Assembly (NCBI GenBank): GCA_030141605.1
Contig: JAQGDQ010000327.1
Coordinates: forward strand, 204,147 to 268,146
DNA from: Tubiluchus corallicola
Lineage: Eukaryota; Animalia; Priapulida
DNA length: 64,000 bases
Reading direction: 5' to 3'
Part shown: piece by piece, positions 8,531 to 64,000 of the stretch
Layout of the letters: the number at the start of each line of letters is the position of its first letter
How positions within the stretch are numbered: the first letter of the stretch is position 1
Program-made: the position numbers and the translations under genes
Notes under the pieces: generated by a model
Seen by the model: only the letters and a program-made list of their open reading frames with translations
Databases searched by the model: none
Told to the model about the DNA's origin: nothing

Positions 8531-11500
8531 GTTTAGTTTAGTTTAGTTTAGTTTATTCACCGTAATGATTTCACATAACATAAGTAGGCAACGATAACTA
8601 TATAACTAACGAAATTAAAATTTAACTACAAAACAAAAAATCATATACAGAGGGCAAATTTCTTTACCGAATCAACAAAAATATTGCGTTTTAATGTAGG
8701 GGCACAATAGTTCTGCTCTCATACGTCTTAACACATCTCCAACAATATTTCATTAACGACGTTAAATTTGGGGAGTGCATAAGGTTATAAATGCTAGAAA
8801 AGTTCAACTCAGAATGTTCAATTCGTAAATCTTCTGTCACCGGACATCTCAATAAGACGTGGGCTTCTGTTTGAACTTCTTCCCCACATGTACATAATCT
8901 GTCTTCTCTCGGTATTCTGGACCAACGTCCGGTTTTTATCATGAGATTATGCGATGACGTCCTAAGTCTGGTAAATTCAACTCTTTGGTAGTCCGGGATT
9001 TCAGATTCCATATCATTATAGACTTTATGAGGTTCTAAACATGGGTTGAGTTCTATAAATGTCAAAAATTTTGTTCCCGTTTTGTTACGAATTTTTGCCG
9101 GAACATCGTCTTTGATATCAGTAGAAAGGATTTTTTGGAGGTACTTGTATCCTTTGGTATTGTTAGTTTTACATAAATTCCAAACAAACATAAATGGATC
9201 ATCCACCATACCAGTTCTTTGACTTATCAGTTTCAATAGCAAATTTCTTTGTGACTGCTGTATTCTATTCTGGAGGCTGGGAATTCCAGCTTCCGCTAAA
9301 CAAATCAAATTTGCCGTCGTTTTCCGGACTCCAAGTAACGCTTTTACTGCTGTCATGTACACAGTGTCCAAATGACCGTACGTGTCACTGAGCCAAGATT
9401 CACTACTATACAATAATGCGGGTAGAAATGCAGCTTCGAACACTTTCATTTTTATCCATATCGGGAAGTCTACGTTTTTTGATACAAAGGCAATGAACTT
9501 CCATAACTGGCCTTGTTTACCAGTACAATGTTCGTCAATTGAAGACTGGACTTTTCCATCTTGGGTAAATGTGGCTCCGAGGTACACGTACTTCTCACAA
9601 TTTTTAACTTCGATATTGCGAACGATCATAGTACATTTATCTTCAACGTCACCGTTGATTACCATAAACTTTGTTTTAGAAGCATTTATTACCATTCCGT
9701 ATTGTTCGCAAAAGTCCAGTAAAATGGAAAATTTGTATTCGGCCTTCTCTCGAGTCGTCGCTAATAATACCGTGTCGTCCATGAGCAGCAATGAGTGCAG
9801 CCAGCCCAAATATCCATCAGGATCACATCGACGTTTTAATTCTCTAATTATTTTGTTTACGTAACACGTGAACAAAAAACAGCTGGTTGGGCTCCCCTGA
9901 CGTACTCCAATCGCCGCACCAAGAATAAACTTTGTGTCCGCGTACAGTTCAGCAATCGCAGCTAACATCGTTCCGCCACATCCAAGCGACTTCAAAACTT
10001 CGAGTGAGGCTTGTCTAGGCACTCTATCGTAAGCTTTAGAAAAATCAATATAGGTAACATATAATTTAGTCCACATCCAAGCGACTTCAAAATTTCGAGT
10101 AAGGCTTGTCTAGGCACTCTATCGTAAGCTTTAGAAAAATCAATATAGGTAACATATAATTTAGTCCGCTTAGATTTCGCATAATTAATCAGTAATCTCA
10201 ACGTTACAATGTGCTCTGCACATCCTCGACCGGGCTGCGCACCAGCTTGTTCCCGCTCCGGACGGTACCACTTCTCTAATCGCTTACACAGAATGACGTC
10301 ATACAACTTAGCTAAAGTGTCCATGATACTAATACCCCTATAATTTCCACAATCAACTTTATTTCCTTTTTTAAATAAGACGATTAATCGCGAGAACACC
10401 CATCCTGCTGGGACATGAACAGTTCGAAATATTATATTAAAGAGTAGCGTTAAAAACATTATCCAGTTCACTGGCAGCCATTTTATTATCCCAGGTGGGA
10501 CTCCCGACGGTCCACCGCTCTTATCGATTTTTAACAAGCTAATGGCATCATCCACCTCAGTAGGAGTAAAAGGATCATCCAAAATAGGAATATTCGGGCA
10601 GTCATTTACACCATCAAAACGTACAGGTGGTGTATCCGACGGATTCAACAAGTTCTCAAAATGACTTTTGAATTCTTCATCTGTAGGCTGCTGTTCACAA
10701 GTTTGTTCAAAGTTTTTCACGGTTCCGTTCCAATCTATCTTACTCCATATTGTTTTTGAATCATTACACTTCCCAAGTTCGCTCCAATTAGGTTTCGCAA
10801 CTTGTTCTTGCTTTCTACGGTTATTTGCTGCATTATTTCCACAACCATACAGTATCTCGTTAATTCGAGACGTTATTTGGCTCACGTCGGAATCTACTAT
10901 ATCGAAGATGTCAAATGGATCGGGTAGATTTTCTACAAACTTCGCCTGATCGATTCTATCACAACGCAGTTGCCTATTCGGTTTTGTAGCATCAATGTCA
11001 ACTTTACCCAACTCAGCCAGGCGAGCTATGATATTTAGCGGATCAAATGTGTCTAAAGAAAACGAAGCGGTAATAGGCGCATGGTCAGAAGGGAGAGACA
11101 GATTTTCCTCCACTAAAAAAGATCGTATGGTCGGAATAAGGTTCGGCGTAATAAAACAATAGTCCAGCTCCGATATCCACTTTTTTCCCTGCCGGTACGT
11201 TGGCTTTGACGGGTACCGCGTTCCACTAATTTTCAAACCATTCAACAGTATCATTTTTGAAAATGCACTGCAACCAGTTTCGCATTGTGATTAGGATTAT
11301 TTAACAGATCCGTTACACCTTCATACGACGAACAACATTTCAGCTTTTGATCCGATATAGCCTCTAAGAATTTAGGGCGCAAATATCCGAAATGGCAATA
11401 CAAGTCACCGATGGCGATCACTGACAAATCAGGATTCCTATTCAACTCGCCACTAATCCGGGACAGACATTCGGTGGTTGCGTACGGAGAATCACTAGGG

Positions 11501-12945
11501 GCAAGATAGCAGCACACAATCATCAAATTCGGTAGTGATCTCAGTTGCAACGTAATGAAGTCTGAGGTGGTACAATCTATTCCGTGTATATCATATTTCC
11601 ATCTATCACTAACCATCACCGCACAACCTCCACGATGACTATGTTCTCTATTAGTTTGAAAGCAACTATACCCAGGTAACTTTAACAAAACAGGTGTCTT
11701 AATTTCATTTAAGCAAATTATATCATAGGACTGTAAATGTATATCCAAATTATCCAGTTTATTTTTGGCGCCATTTATGTTCCATGAAAATATGGATAAA
11801 TCAATAGAATTGTTCAATAGTTTATCGTTGCCACCCTTTAAAAATCCCCAAAACGAGGTCGCCATCTATCTACAACAACATCATCACATAAAATCAATCG
11901 TTTATCTTTATCGAAAATGACGTCTTTGGTCGTATTTGCCGGGTCTTTTTGCCATTTTTCGAAATTCGCATATAGACGCCCCCATTCCCACCTAACGGCG
12001 GGATTGGAGTCCTTACGTACTTTAAGGTTCGCGAACTGATGACCATGTTGCGATATATCTCTCATTTTTGTAACCGTTTGGTTACGTATACTCACGTTTT
12101 CCAACTTCACCAAAATCGGTCGGGCATTCTGTTGATCAACACGTTTCTTTCCGATGCGCTCTACTATAAAATTTCCCATATCACAATCCGATGTTACTGC
12201 CATCAAAGACACTTTGTCTTTGTCAGTGGATTTATTCTGCCAAACCTTTTCCGGTACTCCCTGTATTACTAGGTTATTCGAGCGCTGCCGACTGTCCGCT
12301 TTCTCTAAGTAACGTACTTGATCGTCTATAGCCGACCAGATCATTTTGTTTTCTTCTTTTAGTGCTTGATTTTCCTTTACCAAATGGTCTATCTTTTCAT
12401 CATATAACTCTAATTTTCCTCGATTCGGTTAATTGACGTCAAAGTCGTGATATTTAGCTGCTTTATCTCAGCGAGTGATGGTTGGTCACTGTCCTCAGTT
12501 CCATCGCTTCCCTCACCGCGGCACTTCTGTCCCAGGTAGACTTGCCAGCAATGCTTCTTCCAATACTTTAGCTAAACTTGCTTTCATTTTGAATTTCCGT
12601 TCCAGAGCCGTAGCGTCTAATCCTAGGCATTCATCGAGCTCAGCCATTATCCAATGTTAAATACGGAAATCACTCACGTGAATCCAGGTCACTGGTGAAT
12701 AGGTGAAACAAGCAGGTTTCACGCCAAAAAGTCTAAATTCACCACTGTATCTGATAAAAACGAAAAACGTTTTATCACAAAAACTCGGAACTGCTGCTTC
12801 AAAGAAATTTGAAAGTGTCACTATCACCTTTCTTGAGTTTTCACAATCCTGTTGATATAACTTGGTATAAAATTTGCGTACAAAAAATGACAAAAATCGC
12901 CAAAACGTGGGAGACCCAAAACCTACGTGTGCGCTCACTACATCT
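8531..12945 (-). mobile_element. Near full-length LINE (RTE-X-like) nested in the 3'UTR of the outer LINE
   Basis: (ACTAA)n tail with AATAAA at 8531-8558; ORF1 ~11838-12646; ORF2 8691-11865 with APE (SWNING, CLNE, SDHAP), RT (YIDFSKAYD, GVRQG, LMDD) and C-terminal RLCTC..EAHVLLRC. Broken by a few frameshifts. Confidence 0.88.
9976..10165. repeat. 95-bp tandem duplication inside the RT
   Basis: ccacatccaagcgacttc...ataatttagt at 9976-10070 and 10071-10165 with 2 mismatches; causes a frameshift. Confidence 0.95.
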
Positions 12946-34939: not shown

Positions 34940-35675
34940 TGGTAGAAATGGCACAGGAAAAAATATGACACAGGAAAAAAAAGCAGAAAACATGGCACAT
35001 ATGACATTTTGATACAATTGATTTCTATAATAAAACTAGAATGCAGACCTCAGTAGGAAGCAGACCTCTGACAAAGCCGAACAATCTCAAGTTTATTCAT
35101 CTGATTCTTTTGATTAAAAAAAAAACAAAAATAAACAAGCAAACGTATCTGTATTGGTATTACATAGACTAACAAAACTCAAAAAATTAATTTTTTAAAC
35201 AGAATTATAATCAAAACTTCACAAATATCCCACATAGTGTTTACTTACTTTACTTTAACAATTAATTTCGGCATTGGTAATAGACTGACATATATGCATA
35301 TTTACATACCAAGTCAGCTTATAAGGCCATACACATTAATAAGCAAAGGTTATAGACAGCATTACACTTTCTCTGTGACCTCCACAAAGTGCTTCACGAA
35401 TGTTTTTTGCATGTGGTGTTCGGTCAAGTTTAATGGAAAAGAGCGGGCAAAAAATGCCCCTTTTGGAAACTGATACCTGCCTTCTCCATAAAGTTTTTGA
35501 ATAATAGGCTTAGTGCTATAACATACAAAAACCAATCAGACAAACGAACTATGTTGAAGCATAACTTCCTTGGCAGAAGTAAAAATAATTAAAATAATTA
35601 TCCCCCCCCTGAATAACCCTAACCATAAAGTCATATTTTACCATGTGTGTCATTTTTCCTGTACTATTTATACCT
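34940..35675 (-). mobile_element. Composite repeat copy A: Helentron-associated (HINE-like) element inside a (GTGCCATTTT)-rich repeat
   Basis: Inverted homologue of 41498-42440; HINE-type ends ttacttctgccaagga..ttatg and ..ctgcattctagtt. Confidence 0.65.
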
Positions 35676-35777
35676 ACATTCAATCAGGCATGTGCCAAAT
35701 TCACATATCAAATATCAAGTATGAAAAGGCCTCTGATATGAATGCATAGTATGTATGAATGCAAGGTACAGACTTAC

Positions 35778-36003
35778 TATGGAACAGGAACAGTCCAACG
35801 ATATTGAGAAACAATCCTCCAGCTCCAATACTAAGCATAAGTACAGGTCTTTCTATTGGTTCTATGTCACTCAAGAACCTTTTCATAGCCTCAGTAAAAA
35901 TAATGAAACACAATGATACCAGAAAGACGGAATTGATAAGAGCACCAACAGTTTCCATCCTATACATTTCATATATTTTGTCGAAATTTTTCATCTGAGC
36001 AAG
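35778..36003 (-). CDS. ZnT1/SLC30A1-like zinc transporter, coding exon 2 (TM3-TM4)
   Basis: tttttcttatag|LAQMKNFDKIYEMYRMETVGALINSVFLVSLCFIIFTEAMKRF..PIERP..GGLFLNIVGLFLFH|gtaag; phase 0 to phase 1. Confidence 0.88.
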
Positions 36004-36832
36004 CTATAAGAAAAACATTTGACATGTTTTTATCACAAAATAATGAAATAATGTTAGTTTTATATAATGGGCATATTAAGATTCAGTCAAGTTTAATCAA
36101 CACATAGCAGGATCAATATAATGAAAAAAAGCCCTACCCCAAAAAATTGCAGCAAAACGTTTTTGCAGTTGTTTTGTAGTATTTGGTCCAAGGAATAACA
36201 TATCCCAGTTAGGCCAAAATTTGAGCACTGCAAAGGGTGTAATTATGATATCAAAAATATGGCTGTTTGGCTGCCACTTGACCAAATTAAATGGATATTA
36301 AATGGATATTCAGACTGCCAGAATGGTGAAAAAATGCTCATTTTGATTCAAAAGCAAGAAACTTTGCACAGTGCTAGAGCTCATTAAGGTGATTAATTTT
36401 GATTATGGAGTTAATCGGCCGGAATTTTCAAGATGGCCGACTATATTAGCTTACTAGGGCTATAACTTAGCTGTCAGAGCACACAGGATAATGATTTTGG
36501 TGTCTAAATATAGGTTTTCAAGGTCAACGAATGAACATCTAATGCTTATATGCTGCTATAATATCACCACATTTCAAGATGGTTGTTAAGATAGCAGCAA
36601 ATGTTCCAGAAAATGACAAAATTGCTCATTTTGCTTTTAAAGTATGAAATTTTCCAAAATGCTAAAACCCATCCATCTGAATAATTTTGGAAGTGGACCA
36701 ATTGAAAACTATCCAATATGATGCAGCATTTTTTGCTTACCGTAGGGGCACCACGGCATCGAGAATATGTGCCAAAAATGGCTGTAAACATTTTAATGTC
36801 ATAAAACTCTATCATAAAACAATTTTAATGTC

Positions 36833-39100
36833 ATGTTCTCTACATTTTTCTTGCAGCTGCCGCACTGCAAAGATCATATCAACTGTGCTGCGTCCCTGTC
36901 TAAATCCACACTGACTTTCAGGTGGCAGATCTTTCTCTAGGTGTGCGTTGAGACGATCTAGCAGAATTCTTGCCAGGATTTTGCCAGCAATCGATAGGAG
37001 CGAGATGCCCCTGTGATTGTCACACTGCTGTCTGTTTCCTTTCCGCTTATAGAGGTGGATGATTGTGGCATCTTTGAAGTCTTGTGGTAGTTTTTCTTGT
37101 TTCCACATAAATTGGAACAGCTCCGTCAGTTTCGTCTGTAGTTTAGGGCCGCCGTTTGCATATATTTCAGCTGGGATGGAGTCAGCGCCTGGTGCTTTGC
37201 CGCTGGACAGGCTCTTTATGGCTTTCTCAACCTCTTTCTCTGATGGGGGATTTTCAAGAGATCTGTTGGTAGGGACTTGGGGTAGTCTTTCTATGGCCTC
37301 ATCATTTATTGAGGATGGTCGATTTAGAATGATGTTGAAGTGTTCAGCCCAGCGTTGGAGAATCTTATCATTTTCAGTGAGAAGGGTTGATCTATCGGCA
37401 CTGAGAATTGGTGTTGTGCCAGACTTGGACGGTCCGTAAATAGCTTTGATAGCCTGATAAGAGTTCTTTTGATCCTTTCTGTCTGCAAAGGTTTGAATTT
37501 GGTCAGCTTTTGCACTTAGCCAGGAGTCCTGCATGGCTCTGACCTTCTTTTGGCATTGGTGAAGGCAGTTTTCTTTGCTGGACACTTGGGGTTGTTTATA
37601 AAAGCTCTGTGACATTGGTGCTTTTCATTTAGTAGGGTCTGGATGTGATCGTTGTTTTCATCAAACCAGTCTTGGTGTTTTCTGGTGCAGGGCCCAATGG
37701 TTTCTAGTGCAGAGGAGTAAATGGCATCACTAAGGGCTTTCCATTGAGTTTCAGGGTCTAGATAACTACTATCCAATGCCTCTAATCTATCGTCCATTCA
37801 TGAGTGATTGCCTGACGTTTTCCATTTTCAGCTTGGAGATATTCAGCCGCTTGGGTGCCCGTTTTCCCTGCGGTCTTCTTGAGGGGTGGATTCTGATGTT
37901 TAGTTTGGACAGTATAAGCCGGTGGTCTGTCCAACATTCTGCACCGGACATTGCCTTTGTCACTCTGACATCTTGTTTGTCTCTCTGCCTGACGATAAGA
38001 TAATCTAGTAGATGCCACTTCTTTGAACGTGGGTGTTTCCATGATGTTCTGTTTCGGTGGGGAAGACGGAATACAGAGTTGGTGATGAGCAACTCATGGG
38101 ATGCACAAGTTTCCAGAAGCAGAAGTCCATTGCTGTTGCAGTTACCGGTGCCGTTCTTTCCTAAGATGCCTTTCCATGTGTCATGGTCTTTTCCGACTCT
38201 GGCATTGAAATCACCTAGTATGAGTAGTTTATCTGCTCGTGGGACTGCAGAGGTGGCTTCATTTAGGTCGCTGTAGAATTTTTCTTTGGTGGCCTCTGGG
38301 TTTGTCATTGTGGGTGCATATGCACTTATGATGGTGGCGTGTCTCTTTTTTGACAGTGGCAGTCGTAGTGTCATTAGTCTTTCGTTGAAGCCTTTTGGTG
38401 GAGATTTCAATGTTTTTAGCAGAGATGTTTTGATGGCAAAACCCACGCCTGCCTCTCTGTCCTCATCTAGTTTTTTGCCAATCCAGAAGAAGGTGTAGCC
38501 TATTTTGTTTTCTGGCAGTTGTCCCTCTTCAGCAAAGCGAGTTTCGCTGAGTGCAGCTATGTCGACATTATGCCTAGCCAGCTCGCTAGCTATGAGTGCT
38601 GTTCTTCTGGCTGGTCTGTGAGATCCAGTCTTGTCTTGCAGAGTGTGCACATTTCATGCGCCAAGTGTTAGCGGTTTTCTCCGCTCGTTTCTTTCCTTTC
38701 TTTGTTTCTTAGCGCTAGGCTGGGATCCCCGCCAGTCGCGGCATGCTAGCCAGGGTGAGGTGAAGCAGGCAATGTTTGGTGCACTTTTTCTAGCCCTTTC
38801 CCCATGCTAAGAGGGGAAGCAGTGCAATCCTGAAAAGGGCTGCTTCGTCACTCAGGTGGCTGCCGAATTCCAACGCTGCTTTGGTTCGGTGGAAAGCGAC
38901 CCTATGGCCTGAGCCGCCTATGTGCAGAAGAGTGGCTACGGCTACCAGTGTATCCACACCTACCGCTTCGCCATGCTGTCCATCGCCGCAGGACTTTTTG
39001 TAGGTATAGGGGGTAGGGATGAAGTCATGACTTGCGCGTTAATTTGATTAAAGTGAGGGAGAGTTGCGCAATGTCGTCAGCACAGAGAAGCATGCAATAT
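36833..39100 (-). mobile_element. RTE-clade (BovB-like) LINE, 5' half only
   Basis: GC-rich 5'UTR; APE (ALSETR, ISAYAPT, LGDFNARVG, TDH); RT start (KAPGADSIPAE, HRGISLLS, QCGFR). Stops abruptly at QLQEKCRE. Confidence 0.92.
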
Positions 39101-39349
39101 TTCTTATGTTGATTGTATGTTTGGTAAGGGAATACCAGATACTAATGGTAAAATTCGAATGCAAGTAAAAATGGCACAGGAAAAAAATTGACACAAATAG
39201 AAAAGTAGGTAAAAATGGTAAAGATAAAATGGCACAGGAAAAAATGACATTGTAAAAATGGCACAAATGCAAAAGCAGATATATAGTGCAGATGATTAGT
39301 GTACCAAATTTTCAAACTAACACAATAAGAATTGATTTTCCAAAGAAAA

Positions 39350-41497
39350 CTAGAGAAAAGAAATCTTCAAGTAAACCAGTCAGAAACAGAAGAATATATT
39401 ATAGCAAGAGCTGATAATCAGTCTTGGAAAAAGTGCAAATACATGGGCACTTTTGGAACACCGAAGATGATATTAAAAGTAGAGAGCAACAAACAAATTT
39501 AATGCTTGTTTTCCTTCTGCACAATAATGTATTAACTAGCAAGAAATGAAGTCTTAACATAAGACTTCAATTATTTAAGATTCTGCTTAGAGCAGAAACT
39601 TCTTGATTTACCCCCGGTTTTTATTTTATTTATTTATTATTATTATTTGTCAAGTTTTGTTTCTTTAATAACTCAAGCGTGCACAGTGCTAGGGCCACGA
39701 AACTCACAGGACACACTCCCCACATAGGGGGATTTATGTTAGTATTTTAGTATATCACCCTTGGGTCAAACGTCGTGTAACGGGCAGGGCTTCTTGTTTT
39801 TTTCGTTAGGCTGAATCTCCTCCTACAGTTTTCGAGTTAGGGCCACAATTTTTGGTATGTGGCTAGGTGGTGTCGAGTTTTTGTGCAGTTGGTGTCGAAT
39901 ATGAGCCATTTACAAAGGGGAAAAATTTCTGGTAGGGGGCAAAGAACCAAAATCAAGGGGGTCGGGGACACCAATACTTCCAGTTTCGACATTTTGCTAA
40001 TGTGATGTATGTGGTAAACAAAATGTTTTTATAGTAATTTTGGACAGTAGATTATATGACTTTTCAAAAGACCAGCGGTTGCTATGGTGTACAAAGTCTT
40101 AATTTGGCAGTTGCTAGGGTGTAAAAATAACCATTTCTTCCAAAACATATAAAGTACATATTCTATGACAACTTTGAGGCCAAACAGATGCAACATACAG
40201 AAAACACTGTAATGCTAGAGTTCTCGACACTGCCAAAATTTTGGCCCACCCGAGGTCATCCAAAGGACATCAACAGGGAATATCTCAATCATATTGAGTA
40301 ATATATCAAATTAAAGCATGGGGTGAGGCGGGTTTGACACTAACAAATGTTGGCCCACCTGGAGTCACCTAAAGGGCATCTGCAGGAAATATGTCTACAT
40401 GTTGTGTAATATATCAAATTATTGCTTATGCAGAGGTGATTTGACGTGGTTAATTAAAACGTCAAGATTTGTTGACAAATGGCTTAATTGTCTTTATTTT
40501 GCCAGAACCTTTTGTCCTTCAAATAAATGTCGCAAACAATTGTGTAATAATTATAGGGTACTATAAGCTTAGAAACTCTGTACTAGAATCATAACTTTAA
40601 GGATCTGCTCTGGGCCTATTTAGGAAGCTCCGAAATGCAAAATTAATGGGAAGACAACAGCACAGCAGCATGTAACAATCCAGGGCATCATAGTTAGTGG
40701 CCCTATCACTAGGCACTATCAGAATTTTTTGACACTAATGCATTTGTCTACTAGTAAGATGTCACGGCAGTGTGATAACATATGACCCCCAATAAGCCAG
40801 TGTGCTTTTGTGCTTGAAAAATCATTCTACAACATGTCATACAAGTTCGTTGTGGTTATTGCAAATTTTTCTTCAGGGGACCTACACAGTCACTGACGGC
40901 CTAGTTAATTAGTTTGAAAACAATTTTTTTTGTAAATACAAAACAAAAGCTGTCAGTAAAGCATCTCCTGTCATAGAAGTAGAATCTTACCACAGTTTTT
41001 GACACAGATAAAAATGTCCACTAGTTAATTGCTTATTTTACCAATAATGTGTACAACAATGAAACTTGGGGTTTAACGATTGCTCAAGAAAAGCAGACTG
41101 ACACAATTCATAGAAGTCTTCTAAGGAAAGTTTTAAAGATAAGATCACCATATATAATCAAAAATGAAGATTTATACACCTGAACAAAAGAAATTTCTTG
41201 GAGTTCAAAAGTCAAGATCTGAAGATTAAGATGGCCAGGACACCTTCCAAGATTACCAAATGAGGGCCAGTAAGAATTGCCTTAAAGGAAGCCTTAAAAC
41301 TTTGCAAAACACCACCTGGCAAACCAAAAACAACCCGGATAGCTAAGATGAATAAAGATTTTGAACAAAATTCAAGCAAATCTATCTTTAGGAGTAGAAG
41401 AACTTATGCCGTTAACTGCAGATAGTAGTGGGTGGAATACTTTAATAAATGTTGTTGAGTCAATGCCTACAATAGGCGGAATGAGACTTTGAAGAAG
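39350..41497 (+). mobile_element. RTE-group LINE 3' fragment split by a ~1.45-kb non-autonomous (Helitron/Helentron-like) insertion at ~39591-41040
   Basis: KCKYMG..RLQLFKILL before the insert and YNNETWGLT..RLRWPGHL after it. The insert has several CTAGT-type ends. Confidence 0.55.
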
Positions 41498-42174
41498 ATA
41501 AAAATAGTACAGGAAAAAATGACACACTTGGTAAAATGAGTTTAGGGTTAGAATTACTATGGGGGACAATTATTTTAGTTATTTTTACCTCTGCCAAGGA
41601 AACTATGCTTCAACATAGTTTGTTTGTTTGTCAGGTTGTTGTCTGTTCTGGCAGTAACCCTATTACACAAAAACTACCAAACAAATTTCCTTGGAACTTT
41701 GTGGATAAGGTGGGTAGAGGGTCCAAAATGGGAATGTTTTCACTGAGTCTTTTTTGCAGAACTTGACCAAACACCACTTACAAAAAATATTCGTGAAGTA
41801 CTATGTGCAGGTGTGAGAGGGTGTATTTTGTACTTCTTTTTTATCTCCGCCAGGAGAAACAACTAAAGTTAGTTACAGGTTCCATTTCACGAAATTCTCA
41901 CTTGTAGCTGTCTATGGTCTTTGCTTATTAATATGTATAGCCTTATAAACTGATTTGGTATGTAAATAAACATATATCTGTCAGTCTATTACCATTGCCA
42001 AAATTAATGGCTAAAAAGGTAGATAAGCACTATGTACAATATATTTTGTAACAAACAAAATATTTTGTGTTTTTGCCATATATATATATATGGCTTATGT
42101 AAAATATTTATTTTACATAAAAATGTAAAATAAAAGTAAACAAGCAAACATACAGAAAATGTACCTGTTTTGAT

Positions 42175-42210
<36 letters not shown>

Positions 42211-42630
42211 ATCAAAACAGGTACATTTTCTGTATGTTTGCTTGTTTACTTTTATTTTACATTTTTTAATCAAATTAATCAAACAAATAAGTTTGATTTG
42301 GATTGTTCGGCTTTAGCAGAGATCTGCTTCATACAGAACGCATTCTAGTTTTTTATAGAAAACAATTGCATTAAAATATCATATGTGCCATATTTCTATA
42401 CTTTTCCATTTGTGCCATTTTCACCTCTGCCATTTTTATACATGTGCCATTTTAACCCACTTTTCCATTTGTGCCAATTTTTCCTGTGCCACTTTGATAC
42501 CTGTGCCATTTTAACCTACTTTTCCATTTGTACCATTTTCACCTGTGCCATTATTAGACCTGTGCCATTTTAACCTACTTTTCCATTTGTGCCAATTTTC
42601 CCTTTTTTATCTGTCATTTTTCCCGCACAC
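41498..42630 (+). mobile_element. Composite repeat copy B (HINE-like element within a GTGCCATTTT tandem-repeat element)
   Basis: ttacctctgccaaggaaactatg at ~41585 through cattctagtt at 42350, then a tgtgccatttt array at 42384-42600; inverted match to copy A. Confidence 0.65.
42119..42266. repeat. Perfect 148-bp palindrome centred on (TA)n
   Basis: aaaaatgtaaaataaaag..gatattg(ta)n caatatc..cttttattttacattttt; the arms are exact reverse complements. Confidence 0.95.
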
Positions 42631-52636: not shown

Positions 52637-53584
52637 TTGCCGTTATATGAGCAGAAAGTTAATTGTGATATGCAAACAAGATCAATGACTAAATCTAAAA
52701 CGGAAGTGAAAAGCAAAAAACAACCTGTATACAAGCCGACAAACAAAGAAAGCACTTCAGCAGCGATGGAAAATAACGATGTGACTTCAGGAATGTTTTG
52801 TTCGTTTTTGTCAGAGGAAAACGAAGGGACGACTACAACCCAAACCGAGGATGACGCTGTAGCTCAAGGTAAATCAAATCGTTCAGATGATAAACTTTTA
52901 GCTGCCATTCTTCAAAGTAAAGCCGAAATGAATGAACAATTTGCAAAAATTTCTGCTGAGTTAATAGAAGTTAAAACGAGACAAAAATCTCTAGAAACCA
53001 AGTACGATAAATTGTATTCTAAACTAGAGAATAAGGCAGTCAGGATTGATAATGCAGAAAAAATCAATAAAGAACTTGAGGCTAACCTTAATGATGCTCG
53101 TAGACAAATAGCCGTTTATAAATCCGAAATTGATAACTTGGAACAATACGTACGCAGGGACTGTCTGTTATTTTACGGCCTCCCAGAACAAAAAGAGGAG
53201 AACATTTATAGCATCATCAGCCGTATAATTACGAGCATGGGCTTGCAGATAAATGATATGGATATTAGTGCAGTACACCGCATACCGTCAGAAAAAGGGG
53301 TGCCGCCGATTATAGTGAAATTTACAAGAAGGTCAGTCAGGGATAACATATATAAGCAAAGGAAAAACCGTCCAAGACTTGGTGATATAGGGTTTTCGTC
53401 CAACAATCGTGTCCAGATAGGGGAATGTCTCACTCCGGCCAGGAAGGCATTGTTCAAAAAGTGTGTTGATTACAAAAAACAACGAGGCTATAAATTTGTA
53501 TGGACAAATCAAGGAAGAATCTTTATGAGAGCTAATGAAAAAATGGAATCCTTCGAAATAAAATGTGAAGAGGACTTAACCTAA
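52637..53584 (+). CDS. Intact LINE ORF1 (coiled coil, RRM and CTD; L1/CR1-type ORF1p)
   Basis: LEQYVRRDCLLFYGLPE, DISAVHRI, IIVKF, ECLTP, YKFVWTNQGRIF. Probable ATG at 52670. Confidence 0.88.
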   Translation: MPLYEQKVNCDMQTRSMTKSKTEVKSKKQPVYKPTNKESTSAAMENNDVTSGMFCSFLSEENEGTTTTQTEDDAVAQGKSNRSDDKLLAAILQSKAEMNEQFAKISAELIEVKTRQKSLETKYDKLYSKLENKAVRIDNAEKINKELEANLNDARRQIAVYKSEIDNLEQYVRRDCLLFYGLPEQKEENIYSIISRIITSMGLQINDMDISAVHRIPSEKGVPPIIVKFTRRSVRDNIYKQRKNRPRLGDIGFSSNNRVQIGECLTPARKALFKKCVDYKKQRGYKFVWTNQGRIFMRANEKMESFEIKCEEDLT

Positions 53585-56974: not shown

Positions 56975-59745
56975 CAAGGACTACTATACTACAGGACGTG
57001 CACGCTGAAATCTCTGATTCGGCTAGCGGAGGCGATCAATACTTGCATGAACGTAATCTATAAATAGTGCGCTTTAGAGAGTAGTGATCTTGGAAATTAA
57101 AGAATGGGTGGATCGGTAGATAGCGAGTATTATTTTTCATTTAATTGGTTCTTTACATTACGGGAGAAAAGTACCAATTGTTTATTTTATGTATCAAAGG
57201 AAATTAGTGTTCATTTTTACTTCTTAAATAGCGCACTACTTTAGGCGTAAGTGTGTTTTACCGGAAGTAGTGCTTTGTCATTGTTAATGTGTCTGCTTGT
57301 GTTTGTTTTTTTGTGGATTATTTTCAAAATTTCTGGTGGATTTTATACATCTGTGCTCAGCAGCATGCCTAACAAGTGTGGTGTTGTTAAATGCAAAGGT
57401 AACTATGACACGGAGAACAAGTGTCGTGTGTTCAGACTGCCAAGAGATCATGTAGAAAAACAGAAATGGCTAAGTGTTCGTCCCCCACGCGAAGGCTTTG
57501 TTGTTGATCCAACGAAATTTTTCATTTGCGAAAAGCATTGACCATTTGATACTCAAATGGTCAAAATTCCAGGTGGTCACACCAGGCCAGTGGATCCACC
57601 CAGTATTTTCAACGTTCCAACATCATGCTTGCCCACTCCAAAGCCACCACCTCGCCCTCCAAAAACTGAGGACCAGCAGCTGAATTATTTCTTTAAAAAG
57701 GATAAAATAACTTCTCTCAATGACTTCACTCCTGAGAAAGACCTGCATAAGACGTATCAGAACCTCATTATATCTCGCACACAAGACAAATTTGTGTGCA
57801 TGTTCATGGAAGAGGACCACAGTCAATGTTATATGTCAATTATTGTTCACAATAAGCCTACCTTGTGTTCCCCTCTTACTCTGTATGCTTTCAAAAACGG
57901 GATCAGTGTGCCATTAAGTAAAATCCTCAGTCCGAACAATGGGCTGTCCTCTTACTCACAATTTTTCGCGGTTGTGAATTCTGTTGTCAACCACATTCAT
58001 CATGTTGATGATATTGTCAACAAAGTGACAAAGTCTCTTGAACTTGAACTAGCTCAAAATCGAGAACAATCTCCTAGTGTTAATGCTAAAGCCAAGAAGC
58101 TCAAATTTCTAACACGACAGCTTCGACTATTATGTGATAAGATTTTCACAGTGTCTGATTATTGCTTTGCAATAGAGTCATTTCCCCATTGCAATTACGA
58201 ACAACTGCGTGACTTGTCAGAGATTATCGTTTGACAAGAAAACTGTTGGCTCATTTGCTGAAGTAAAAAGTCTTTACAAAGCTGAGAAAGACAATGTGCT
58301 CAAGTCAACACCTTTGACATATTCTGCAGTCTTCCCATCGAAACTTCAGCTCCAGAATGTGCAACATGTCCTGAGGGTGTTCAACGATCGTGTCGTTGCA
58401 TCGCTGAGACTTCGAGGAGCCCAGGACACTGCAGAATTCATTCAGCAAGTGCTACGCTGGTGGAATGTGGTAAATGTTTCTGCCAGAGGTCAAGACACGA
58501 GGATGAGAGACCCTGATCGATCTGCTCAACAAGATACATCTGATACTCTTCAGTCGTTGTTGACTCTGTTTAAGCAAACCGAATCAGGACACGGACCAAA
58601 TAGAATTGAATGCCTGACACATGATACGCGAAAAGCTTTGATTCAGACCACGGAGGGACTCCTCGCTATCTGTAGGCACTTGTTTTCTGTTGGATTTCAC
58701 TACGTATTATTGCGTGAACTTCAGAGTGACAGAACAGAGGGTGAGTTCTCAGTTTACAGGCAGTCAAGGGGGGCCAATGCATTCATGCAAGCTGGAGATG
58801 TCTGTTCAGCATTCAAGCGGAGACTGGCGCGTTTCTCTGCATCATTCCTGGAGTTTGTGGACACAGACACATCATCCGAAAGCCAGTTGCACACATGCAA
58901 TGGGATTGATTTCGAGGATGCCAAAATTATGGAGATTTGTGTTGACGAGACTCTTTCCAAAACTGAACTGAACGCGTGTTCATATGTCGCAGGTTGGTTG
59001 GAGAGTAAGTGCCAAAATGACATTTCTTTTCCCGAGGATGAGCCTCTCCTTTCTGAGGAAATGAAAATGTTCACTGAAGAAGTGTCTAGGGGAGGTCTTA
59101 CAGTGCCCCACACATTCACGTTCGAATTCGTAACAACTGGCTTGTGTTTTGTGAAGAAGTCAACTCACACAGTCTGCTGCCGCAACAAGCTCATGAACAT
59201 CCTCTCCATAATCAATGCCTACTTTGATTTTGGAGAATTTTCAAGAAATGCTCTGAGACGCCTGGCGAATGTACTGCTGCATGGACTACACAATTTGGAG
59301 AAGGATCACCAGCAGAACTCAGCCCTTTACCAGACCTCCATTAAGAAGGCGCGACTAGCCGACTAATTGTCGCAAACATCTCTGTAAATGGTGAGTGCAA
59401 TAATTTCACGTATTCTAATTTACACAGAGGAACCTATGAATGAGTTTATATAGTCCTGACAAAATGGTGCAGTCTGTTTATTCTCTATAGAAAGTGACAG
59501 GTAATCTTCGGGACACAATGAGTTGCAGATATGGTGTGTTTTTTTTGGGGGGGATATCATAGGTACCACTGTTTTTAAATTACTAGATGAATGAGGAATA
59601 TGTTCTATGTGTATTGTGGCATGCTATATGTCACCATGGGGGGTAAATATGTCCAAATTATTAGCACTAAATGTTAAAAATAGATCGCCTCCGCTAGCCG
59701 AATCAGAGATCTGACCGTGCACGTCCTGTTGTATAGTAGTCCTTG
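56975..59745 (+). mobile_element. P-element superfamily (THAP-domain) DNA transposon, internal deletion derivative
   Basis: ~63-bp TIRs caaggactactatac..ggcgatc (56975-57037) and gatcgcc..tagtccttg (59683-59745). No clean TSD. Confidence 0.9.
57365..59366 (+). pseudogene. THAP9/P-like transposase, disrupted
   Basis: THAP MPNKCGVVKC..FRLP..W..ICEKH* (stop at 57539-41)..PSIF; C-terminal half QLQNVQHVLRVF, LQSDRTEGEFSVYRQ, YVAGW. The central region appears deleted at ~58215. Confidence 0.85.
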
Positions 59746-60659: not shown

Positions 60660-62281
60660 ATACTTAGTTTTGGTGTAATTAATTCAGATTTTGTTCGCTT
60701 TCATCCAGTCATGAAAGTTTTTTAGTTCGTTGTTAATGATAAGTTGTAAAGTTAAAGACTTGTGCCATCAGCGAAAAGACGAGTATTAAAGTCAGTAGCA
60801 AGAGACAGGTCATTCATATTGTAACGTACAGCGGATGGCGCCGATTCTTTCGCCTTAGCATAGCTGTGGAAAAAACGTAAAAACGCACCTGCCAGTGCTA
60901 GGCCACAACCGACTAGGCCATTCCATGCCAACCTACTTGTACCTGCTATTCAACGGCTTCGTAATGGATCGAACTATTACAATGTAGAGGGGGATCGAAA
61001 TTAAATGGTATTTCGCCCCCGTAACACTGCCCTCCTCTACAGAACCAGAACGAACCAGAATGAAGCACGCAGAAGAAATATTTTTTTATTGAAAAGCAAA
61101 TTTACAAATATCAAAGTTTACAAATATCAAAGTAATACAAAATTTCTGTTACAATTTGGTAAAACACGGTAAAACAAGCACGCATTAAACTTCAACGTAC
61201 CTGCTAATATGGACTCTGAGAGCTCCGATTTTTGAACAATCAATAAGACGTGTTGAAAACGCACACAAGACTACAGCTACCGGCGACGATGAAAGAAATC
61301 CGTCGTACTGCACATTGGTTCTGGCAGTTCCATGTCATAGAGGCTGTTCGGTGATGTGCTGCTGCAGATCTAAGGTTGCAGGTTCGAATCCACTGGGGAT
61401 AGCTTAGGATTACCCCCCCCCCCCCCACCGTACTAGAACCCAGTATAACACAGAGCGGATGGTGCTGATGCTCTCCGCCGTTGCATAGTTGTTAAGAAAA
61501 CGTAAAAAAGCAGTAGTAAGAGTAAAATTACACAATTAAGTAACATCTAAATATCTAATCCATTGTGCTCCATGCCGGTTGTCATTACGGAGCAGGTCCT
61601 GAGGTGGAAAACGCACCTGCCCGTCAGCCCACGAAACTGACTAGGCCATTCCATACCAGCTACTATAGCTGATATGCAATGGCTTCGTAATGGATCGAAC
61701 CATCACAATGTAGAGAGGGGTCGAAAATAAATTGCATTTCGCCCCGGTAACACTATAGATAATGAAAAGCAGTGGCCCAAGAGTGGATCTTTGAGGTACA
61801 CAGCAGTTTAAGTCTAGTAAGTCAGAACATGTATTGTTAATAGTGGTGAACTGTTGTCAATTAATTAAGCTTCAAAGAGATTCAACACAGGGCCTCTGGC
61901 CTCTAATTCCATAATAATGTAATTTATGTAGTAGAATATCATGTTAGACTGTTACAAAGGCTTTAGATAAATCTAAGAATATTGCAAAAATGATTAGTTT
62001 TTTTGTATAAATTTAGAAGCATATTTTCAAAAAACTCAGAAGTAGGTAATGAAGCAGAGTAAGTTTTGCGACAACCAAATTGAAATTTTGTTAGTATATT
62101 ACGTGAAGAGAGAAATAATAAATAATAATATACAAATAATATTTTCAAAAATTTTGGAAACTGGCGACAGGAGAGAGACTGGACGATAATTTGATAGGTT
62201 ATTTGGCGAATCATGTTTATAACCTGGTTTTACTTTTGTTACTTTTAGACATTTAGGAAAATTTCTTTCAGAAACTGCGAT
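60660..62281 (-). mobile_element. LINE RT fragment interrupted by the TRIM and cut by the Polinton-like element
   Basis: NYRPVSLLSPVSKIFE, QFGCR, PQRSTLGPLLFIIY|MND..FADG. Confidence 0.8.
60820..61752 (-). mobile_element. TRIM-like miniature LTR element
   Basis: Direct repeats 60820-61026 (TGTAAC..GTAACA) and 61444-61752; ~420-bp non-coding interior; TSD ATAT/CTAT; minus-strand purine tract gtagaggagggcag next to the left repeat. Confidence 0.8.
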
Positions 62282-62559
62282 AGTAGTGTAAAACACCCCT
62301 AAAAAAGTGCGAAAATCCGCGAAAACCCCTAAAAAGTGTGAAAACCCGCGTGAAAGTGCGCACGTGACCGAAATCTACGAAAAAGCGCGAAAAACAAAGA
62401 AAAACGAAGAAAAGGCGTGTGAAACGAGGGAAAAATTTTGCAGTTTTTCCCCTCCCGCATGGCTTTATTTGGATCGAATGACCTTGAACTCTAGGTCACG
62501 TGACCAAAGTTCATTGACCCCTAGATGGCTTCTTTTTTGACGCCCCATTTTAAACCGCG

Positions 62560-62645
62560 CGGAAGCGCGCGAAAGCGTGTGAAAGCGCGTGAAAGTGTGT
62601 GAAAGCGTATGAAAGTGTGTGAAAGAGTGTGAAAGTGTGTGAAAC
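62560..62645. repeat. 10-bp tandem repeat (GAAAGTGTGT-like) in the terminal region
   Basis: gaaagcgtgt gaaagcgcgt gaaagtgtgt gaaagcgtat.. about 8 units; related units at 62300-62430. Confidence 0.9.
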
Positions 62646-62909
62646 GAGGTAAAAAGTGTCTCAAACGAAGAAAAAGGGAGAAGTGGAGTTCCCGCCGAGG
62701 ACTAATTAGTGCTAATTGGTGCTAATTGGGGAGCCCGCTGGCTGCCACCCCTCCGTCGCGTGCAAGCGTCCGTCCCGGGGGTCGGGGACCCCCTGCAACC
62801 CACCCCTCCATCGCGTGGAATCGTCCACTGCAGGCAATGAGGGAAATCTTTTTCCCGCCACTCGCACAGTGCCGGCCCTTTTCCGCGACCACTTCTCTCA
62901 CGGGTTTAG

Positions 62910-62953
<44 letters not shown>

Positions 62954-62956
62954 GTG
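62910..62956. repeat. (TG)n microsatellite
   Basis: TG run. Confidence 0.95.
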
Positions 62957-63127
62957 GAGATTTATTTCAAACGTCAAAGTTCGATAAATGCATTTTCACA
63001 AATCTTTTTTATTGATAGATTACAAAAATTTTTTTTACATTTTTTATGCAAAATACATACGTGCTAAAACTAGATTATTATTATGGTGACATTTTACGTT
63101 TTTTTCGCAAATTACAGTAAAACTACA

Positions 63128-63745
63128 CTAATGAGTACATGGATTGTCGTCGATGTGATACAGGCAAACGTTATTGTTGTTAAAAACGAATTCGTTAAAT
63201 TTGCGGAAAACGCGAGAGAAATCCTCGACGTTTGTCCCGCCCATCATTATTATGCTTCCGGTGTGAAAAATGTTCAGAGTAATTTGCTCGCATTTACAAG
63301 TTAGTTTGGGAAGTAGCTCCACTTCGTAAAACACTTCTCTAAAAGAATGCGTCGAAGGACGAACGAGTTCTTCGTACAGTGCACCCAGTTTCAATCTGCA
63401 GCGAATTTTGGCTCTGGCGGTGATGGTGCGAATTGCGATCCCGTCGGCGGGCGTCAGTCCGAGACCTTTCGAGAGTTCTTCGATCGCATTTCGTAGTACT
63501 TTTTCCTCGGAAAAACCGTTGGCCACCACGGAGCCGGAGGCAAAAATCATCAGCGTCCCGCCCAGTCGCTTTAGCAGAAGCATTTGCAGTTTCCTTTCGT
63601 AGCGTCTTCCGCCCGTTCTCCGCTGGAGTTCGTTCAGATCGAAGCGCTGCGAGAACGAAGCCGTGGCGATGATGTTGACCATTTGGACTGACACGTTAGA
63701 ACGTAGTTGGCAATCGTTTTGGACGCCCGAATCGCTCTGCCTCAT
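63128..63745 (-). CDS. Divergent intronless TATA-binding protein (TBP)-like protein, 205 aa
   Basis: Two TBP repeats: VNIIATA..DL..LMIFASGSVVANG and IRTITA..L..YEVELLPKL..LNIFHTGSIIMMG. ATG at 63745; AATAAA downstream (~63007-63012). Confidence 0.85.
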   Translation of the reverse strand: MRQSDSGVQNDCQLRSNVSVQMVNIIATASFSQRFDLNELQRRTGGRRYERKLQMLLLKRLGGTLMIFASGSVVANGFSEEKVLRNAIEELSKGLGLTPADGIAIRTITARAKIRCRLKLGALYEELVRPSTHSFREVFYEVELLPKLTCKCEQITLNIFHTGSIIMMGGTNVEDFSRVFRKFNEFVFNNNNVCLYHIDDNPCTH

Positions 63746-63999
63746 CCGTTGCTCTGCCAACGTATGGCGGGCGGCGGGTGCTCGCTTTCCAGATCCTCTA
63801 CGCGTATGACCACGCGATTTTTGGGGAGATGTTTTTTGACGAAATCGTACATCTCTGCTCCCTTGACGTAGGTGATCCTGCCTCTGGTGGTCTGTCGTAG
63901 AATGTTTTCCAATTCTGCGTACTCGATCATTCCCTCCTCCCACGAGATGCTGTGTATGTGTCTGATTAGGTAGTTGTAGGTGGATCGCTTGTGCTGGGG
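63742..63999 (-). CDS. 3' end of an uncharacterised ORF (5' part outside the window)
   Basis: Open from the window edge: PQHKRSTYNYLIRHIHSISWEEGMIEYAELENILRQTTRGRITYVKGAEMYDF..; its TGA overlaps the TBP-like ATG (ATGA). Confidence 0.7.
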   Translation of the reverse strand, partial: PQHKRSTYNYLIRHIHSISWEEGMIEYAELENILRQTTRGRITYVKGAEMYDFVKKHLPKNRVVIRVEDLESEHPPPAIRWQSNG

Positions 64000-64000
64000 A

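Follow-up and report, generated by a model that had tools for sequence, protein, structure and literature searches.

The 64,000-nt window analysed here (Tubiluchus corallicola, Priapulida; contig JAQGDQ010000327.1, positions 204,147 to 268,146) ends in a CpG-rich block carrying an open reading frame that resembles the TATA-binding protein (TBP). How did such a gene come to lie there, what DNA and which partners might its product recognise, and whom would it serve? According to the original prediction, made from the sequence alone, a mobile element carries here a divergent TBP with a remodelled TATA-binding surface, which may act either as the element's own promoter factor or as a decoy for host TFIIB.

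We found that the intact, intronless frame and the two-repeat TBP fold are both as predicted. An equal or longer ORF appeared in none of 500 shuffles of positions 62951-64000. The 205-aa protein matches PF00352 of Pfam over two stretches (E 3.6e-21, 75.2 bits against a cut-off of 22.9), and every one of its 35 solved-structure matches is a TBP or a TBP fusion (best E 8e-9). An AlphaFold2 model built from an 88-sequence alignment has a mean pLDDT of 90.5 and is weak over the first 20 residues; a second in-frame ATG, at codon 22, lies near the start of many short homologues. The model was matched by Foldseek to yeast TBP (1tbp, E 1.6e-11) and by VIA to human TBP (5fur_A, Z 18.6, rmsd 1.9 over 171 residues), as against Z 8.0 for the best non-TBP fold. 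The two-lobed saddle is thus shared with cellular TBP/TBPL2, whereas the first stirrup and a hairpin together lack three residues and the helix 2 region is also shorter. We conclude that this is a real, functional-looking TBP carried by an element. Viral TBPs are an already known kind of gene; what is new is the residue logic, namely a conserved polar DNA face combined with a canonical TFIIB dock.

The block around the gene differs in composition from the rest of the window, as had been noted (CpG o/e 1.33 and GC 0.48 over 62283-64000 vs 0.66 and 0.37 elsewhere), and a two-segment likelihood scan placed the change-point at 62282-62306 in three runs. The hexamer AGTAGT lies on this break (Table 1); it occurs 20 times on the plus strand of the 64 kb and by itself is a weak signal. 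Maverick/Polinton elements are described as having the edge motif 5'-(AGT)2 or (AG)3, with (AGT)2 being the one found most often in vertebrate Mavericks (PMC8097293), and the hexamer at 62282 has this form. On the outer side of the junction lies a decayed LINE. Its segment 61749-62012, read with X at stops, matches RVT_1 of Pfam with E 2e-6 and 28.1 bits, below the cut-off of 29.6, and 62135-62281 aligns with two other LINE reverse transcriptases of the window up to a few codons from the junction; none of five short stop-free pieces of the remnant, taken singly, had a Pfam match. This is a mobile, virus-like insertion, and its sharp edge with a Maverick-type end motif bears out the prediction that the gene is borne by a mobile element.

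Table 1. Features of the window (nucleotide positions unless residues are given)
Feature	Position	Strand	Remarks
Nearly whole LINE	8691-12428	-	in several frames; CpG o/e near 1.2
Nested inverted-repeat pairs	34941-42588		several, 6-7.5 kb apart
LINE with endonuclease and RT frames	36812-38653		enclosed by the 34941-42588 inverted repeats
Palindrome	42106-42279		87 nt, perfect spacing
304-aa ORF	52670-53584	+	intact; coiled coil and Baculo_FP_2nd domain, E 2.7e-12
DNA transposon	56975-59745		66-nt inverted ends, 92%
THAP domain	57365-57538		start of the fragmented transposon gene, E 2.7e-5
LINE reverse-transcriptase remnant	61644-62281	-	decayed; insertion target; homology stops at the junction
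TGCGAT	62276-62281		candidate 6-bp target duplication
AGTAGT	62282-62287	+	likely element end; on the composition break and LINE cut end
Likely terminal inverted repeat arm	62282-62956	none	GC/CpG-rich, non-coding, ~670 nt
12-nt palindrome GGTCACGTGACC	62494-62505		in terminal arm
10-nt tandem repeats	62552-62644		in terminal arm
CTAATTGGTG x2.8	62702-62729		in terminal arm
Duplicated 27-mer	62745-62771 and 62800-62826		in terminal arm
(TG)23	62911-62956		in terminal arm
AT-rich stretch 3' of TBP stop	62957-63127	-	two AATAAA, at 63013 and 62966
TBP gene	63128-63745	-	ATG to TAA, 205 aa, no stop or intron
TBP-fold core	~residues 16-196		first 20 residues of low confidence
Upstream ORF	63742-64000	-	85 aa visible, open at the window edge

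The long frames examined in the window are mostly transposon remnants; the host DNA had been described as intron-rich. The 304-aa ORF likely encodes a LINE ORF1-type protein, and the LINE near the start of the window is likely young because of its CpG o/e. Longer pieces of the transposon gene that begins with the THAP domain had no Pfam match.

No second copy of the terminal arm was found within the 64-kb window, and the partner arm would lie outside it. The arm folds no better than shuffled sequences (z -1.7). In it CACGTGAC occurs twice (region of 62357-62369, 62477-62507 and 62702-62729), once inside the 12-nt palindrome; TGACCT and AGGTCA half-sites stand 8 nt apart, and TAATTGG is repeated. 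We take these words to resemble E-box, nuclear-receptor and CCAAT/homeodomain sites, and they may be candidate host-factor sites of the element. The AT-rich stretch between the arm and the TBP stop is likely a 3' UTR with poly(A) signals.

The TBP gene is the last gene of the inserted element, about 0.85 kb inside its end, and has a virus-like layout: it is intronless, its start overlaps the stop of the upstream ORF (ATGA), and AATAAA follows downstream. The visible 85-aa fragment of the upstream ORF gave no match in Pfam, PHROGs, homologue, Atlas or fold searches, and its model has a pLDDT of 50.6; its YVKG..VEDL stretch presumably resembles a Maverick accessory protein. Scanning for this family with degenerate motifs yielded 0 and 111 matches; by eye no match looked related, and most were phage cyclase-like and terminase-like frames. 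A locus scan with the same ORF counted one relative among seven stretches and returned no locus. The element part inside the window amounts to 1.7 kb, with the window ending 255 nt upstream of the TBP gene, and these 1.7 kb show neither a second terminal repeat nor a gene for polymerase, integrase, capsid or ATPase. Judged by its end motif and layout, the element is in all likelihood a Maverick/Polinton, a class that we call likely, not proven, because the window stops short of the region where core genes (protein-primed PolB, integrase, capsid, ATPase and protease) would be expected.

Alternatively, the gene may stem from an integrated DNA virus of a different kind, for which giant viruses, nimaviruses, mirusviruses or herpesviruses would be the models. 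Large dsDNA viruses often carry TBPs, with 107 genomes counted (PMC7221094), and this origin is also favoured by the two nearest Atlas clusters, which are mostly viral, and by the lack of a Maverick core gene in the visible part. We nevertheless consider it unlikely, as a sharp edge that carries (AGT)2 and is followed by 670 nt of repeat-rich arm suits Mavericks, viral structure matches are at most 20% identical to the protein, and the three giant-virus-type TBPs in our tree stand apart from it. It should be mentioned that no relative of the 205-aa TBP was found in viral-contig and metagenome-contig locus scans, and that an alignment of four related short TBPs led to five loci, all with giant-virus-like gene content. 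Giant-virus-type contigs (L001, 5517-6068; L002, 10001-10546; L003, 9986-10543) carry TBPs that are close to eukaryotic TBP and unrelated to the protein of the window.

To place the protein among TBPs, we used the 88 matches found by a HMMER scan at E <=0.001. Only one of them, P0001, fell below 1e-10; this sole close relative is 59% identical, comprises 145 aa without the first 54 residues and lies on a 1.9-kb contig. A set of 35 divergent homologues was assembled from 34 of the 88 matches, picked by eye, and one from a profile search dominated by cellular TBPs; these are long-branch TBPs, mostly of 160-190 aa. The tree of 47 rows included 24 divergent, 11 eukaryotic, 8 archaeal-type and 3 giant-virus-type proteins (the last two are inferred labels), without TRF2 and without canonical invertebrate TBP. 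In this tree, whose bootstrap is not fully settled, the protein forms a pair with P0001 (100/96) and falls in neither the eukaryotic (98/93) nor the archaeal (100/97) group; it stays outside the eukaryotic clade when 18 DNA-face columns are dropped (97/95). Its grouping with two rodent TBPL2-type cores was rejected (AU p 0.0051). The protein and P0001 are identical at 29 of the 35 columns that are conserved in the 34 other divergent TBPs vs 52 of 104 elsewhere (p 0.0007), and their end branches (0.38 and 0.35) are not accelerated. By these alignment measures the pair is under constraint.

A host TBP-family paralogue or retrocopy carried passively is therefore largely refuted, and we regard it as exceedingly improbable. 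The composition of the tree, with neither TRF2 nor canonical invertebrate TBP, leaves some room for a TRF2 origin; the protein is, however, only 19-25% identical to 19 eukaryotic TBP-family cores, and it retains Phe where TBPL1 has Trp. The view that the gene is not a decaying TBP/TBPL2 copy is thus upheld both by the AU test and by the constraint seen against the 59% relative. TRF2/TBPL1 shares with it the loss of TATA-contacting Phe residues, and TRF2 still binds TFIIB; but TRF2 shares about 40% identity with TBP and carries Trp at N-lobe position L5.1, whereas the window protein is about 22% identical and has Phe there, F68 (PMC4422821, PMC7221094). A TRF2-like remodelling, to which the original prediction had alluded, does not agree with this residue. 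Statements on the four intercalating Phe and on TRF2 follow PMC3142196 and PMC4422821.

The DNA-contacting face was compared at the 16 positions of Table 1 in PMC12529657 (yeast numbering), with the residue alignment made to a rodent TBPL2-type core. This comparison revealed that: (i) five positions are identical to TBP (N69, F116, V122, P191 and F207); (ii) three changes are conservative (V71I, L114M and V213I); while (iii) the remaining eight are changed (F99L, A101M, T124N, N159T, V161T, F190L, L205N and T215M). The two inner Phe (F68 and F160 for yeast F116 and F207) are kept and the second conserved Asn is replaced by Thr (T107 for N159), as had been read by eye. The prediction that the other two Phe are Leu holds for L145, which aligns with F190 in the ELLP motif. 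L53 in place of F99 is likely; the shortened loop leaves the register uncertain by one residue, with HMMER aligning Q54 to F99 and another MAFFT run giving yet another placement. No alignment that we made places Phe at F99. Hence, where canonical TATA binding goes with four intercalating Phe and two concave-face Asn, the protein has two and one. The replacement of five canonical minor-groove positions alongside the two inner Phe suggests a changed DNA specificity.

Loss of two Phe is not the trait that characterises the family, and in this respect the original emphasis had to be revised. Phe at F190 is kept in P0001, in 31 of the 35 divergent homologues and in all 19 canonical rows; Leu stands in two divergent ones, so that in the alignment Leu is nearly private to the window sequence. 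We therefore rejected the two lost Phe as a family trait. The conserved change is instead a polar DNA face (T124N, N159T/S, V161T, L205N and T215M), common to four homologues. P0002, P0005 and P0025 (23-28% identical) have N124, T/S159, T161, a polar 205 and M215, with no Phe at F99, and P0001 equals the window protein at 11 of the 12 face positions it covers, the exception being its Phe at F190. The identity of 11/12 between these two exceeds that of other columns (69/124, p 0.015), and the comparison with other strand positions (33/46) gave no significant excess (p 0.26).

The five proteins (the window protein, P0001, P0002, P0005 and P0025) form a group supported at 97/95; we rejected it as a proven clade, since it dissolves once the 18 DNA-face columns are dropped. 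The shared face may reflect common descent kept at the face alone, or convergence, and either origin would imply selection on a non-canonical face. A partial polar face (Asn/Ser at yeast L205, Asn at T124 and Thr at N159) was also observed in six short TBPs that keep both glutamates (P0029, P0084, P0051, P0055, P0050 and P0040); these divergent proteins are part of a broad set of mini-TBPs.

The near-private Leu raises the question of whether the family is functional but this copy partly disabled. With the first Phe gone too, two of four intercalating Phe are left, and the wide retention of the C-lobe Phe among relatives points in the same direction; given L145, the copy may bind DNA poorly. 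Against such damage stand the intact frame, the absence of CpG loss (o/e 1.55 within the ORF), the unaccelerated branch and the two unrelated homologues that also have Leu at this position. We find a disabled copy rather improbable.

In the C-lobe stirrup, the residues E141, E143 and L144 align with human E284, E286 and L287 (the glutamates being yeast E186/E188, with L189 following), as in canonical and cellular TBP/TBPL2; the human numbers of the glutamates are those used in PMC7221094. The claim of a retained acidic stirrup beside an altered DNA face thus agrees with the residue alignment. Both glutamates are present in P0001 as well, and they are found in 29/35 and 32/35 of the divergent homologues, a conservation inflated because these were found by likeness to the window protein. 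For comparison, the first stirrup glutamate is reported in about 40% of viral TBPs (PMC7221094). The kept E141, E143 and L144 would be consistent with the use of TFIIB.

The N-lobe basic patch, which serves TFIIA, TAF1, Mot1 and Brf1 (PMC7221094), is eroded relative to cellular TBP: human R188 is replaced by G, R235/K236 by E/E, and the K243 region is deleted, whereas the R231 and R239 positions are still basic. In P0001 none of the positions R231, R235, K236 and R239 is basic. This erosion suggests that control by host regulators may be reduced.

The protein could also bend DNA for the element without recruiting host TFIIB, working with another element partner or binding the terminal repeats for replication or packaging. 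Most TBP-bearing viruses are reported to encode a TFIIB-like partner as well (PMC7221094), and herpesvirus vTBP bypasses TFIIB (PMC12529657). Within the element, the tandem 10-mers of the terminus are possible binding sites, and the translational coupling of the upstream ORF to the TBP gene favours a partner of this kind. However, the terminal repeats are not AT-rich, and the glutamates with the following Leu, kept here and in most homologues, are not required by a TFIIB-free model. We judge it unlikely, if somewhat less so than the other-virus origin or the disabled copy.

Retention of the stirrup while DNA contacts are changed, together with the replacement by Ser of two basic residues on the phosphate side (human K218 and K309), might also suit a decoy that titrates host TFIIB (or Brf) and dampens host transcription. 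The changed face is nevertheless common to relatives, TFIIB as a rule binds TBP well only on DNA, and animal Mavericks have no RNA polymerase; an element without its own polymerase depends on host Pol II. We found no positive support for the decoy half of the original prediction and consider it very unlikely.

With an element-serving TBP that uses host TFIIB as the preferred reading, three viral systems can be compared. KSHV ORF24, a herpesvirus vTBP, is likewise a viral TBP mimic working with host Pol II (such use being only predicted for the window protein) and, like it, has a polar-shifted DNA face, with Asn for yeast T124 and a polar residue both at V161 and at L205. ORF24 is a 752-aa protein in which the four Phe and the two Asn are all present; it is described as lacking the TFIIB glutamates and depends on a viral complex of several proteins, whereas the window protein is a bare 205-aa core with the glutamates present (PMC12529657). 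Giant-virus TBPs are also divergent, with the L5.1 Phe kept and the N-lobe regulator signatures lost, but in most of them the TFIIB glutamates vary, in co-evolution with a TFIIB of the virus (PMC7221094). As far as residues can tell, the canonical glutamates of the window protein argue against a giant-virus-style system with its own TFIIB.

The nearest precedent comes from Starrett et al. (2021; PMC8502044, Fig. 5 legend; also the preprint 10.1101/697771, cited with it), who label a TBP among MELD viruses whose PolB is adintovirus-like, thus a TBP-like gene in a Polinton-class element; in that section on non-animal datasets TBP stands as a label, and neither its residues nor its function are discussed. 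No TBP label occurs in the text taken from the maps of animal adintoviruses (PMC8502044, Suppl. Fig. S2), and a term search of 10.1101/2023.08.22.554363, PMC11161782, PMC11131425 and PMC12220804 gave no mention of TBP. In the literature outside subscription journals and Repbase we found no study of a TBP protein of a Polinton/Maverick.

Thus, it can be hypothesized, with about an even chance of being right, that the end-most TBP gene of a likely Maverick/Polinton acts as the element's own core-promoter factor using host TFIIB. The gene would be transcribed by host Pol II, for which the AATAAA signals 3' of it are the basis, possibly on a shared or upstream-started transcript; no TATA-like word was found in the 255 nt upstream of its start. 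Its product is predicted to bind the minor groove of a non-canonical AT-rich box of the element rather than TATAAA, gripping it by the two inner Phe and a hydrogen-bonding, more polar saddle. It would then present its canonical stirrup to host TFIIB and so recruit host RNA polymerase II, probably under less control by factors of the TFIIA/TAF1/Mot1 type. By analogy to herpesvirus vTBP, for which a late-gene role is reported (PMC12529657), it might serve late genes.

More tentatively, and with somewhat less than an even chance, such a protein could be a one-protein transcription switch of animal Mavericks: a bare TBP whose conserved polar code reads an element box, which docks host TFIIB and escapes the regulators. 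The value of a single locus is limited, since viral TBPs are already known and the element end alone is visible. If the switch is real, it would be a third viral solution beside the TBP/TFIIB pairs of giant viruses and the multi-protein complex of herpesviruses, and a natural altered-specificity TBP working with unmodified host Pol II. We found no description of Maverick gene timing in animals in the literature, and a small TBP with a polar face and an intact TFIIB dock would offer a testable answer to it. The conserved non-canonical face would at the same time be a natural experiment on the saddle residues that set TATA specificity.
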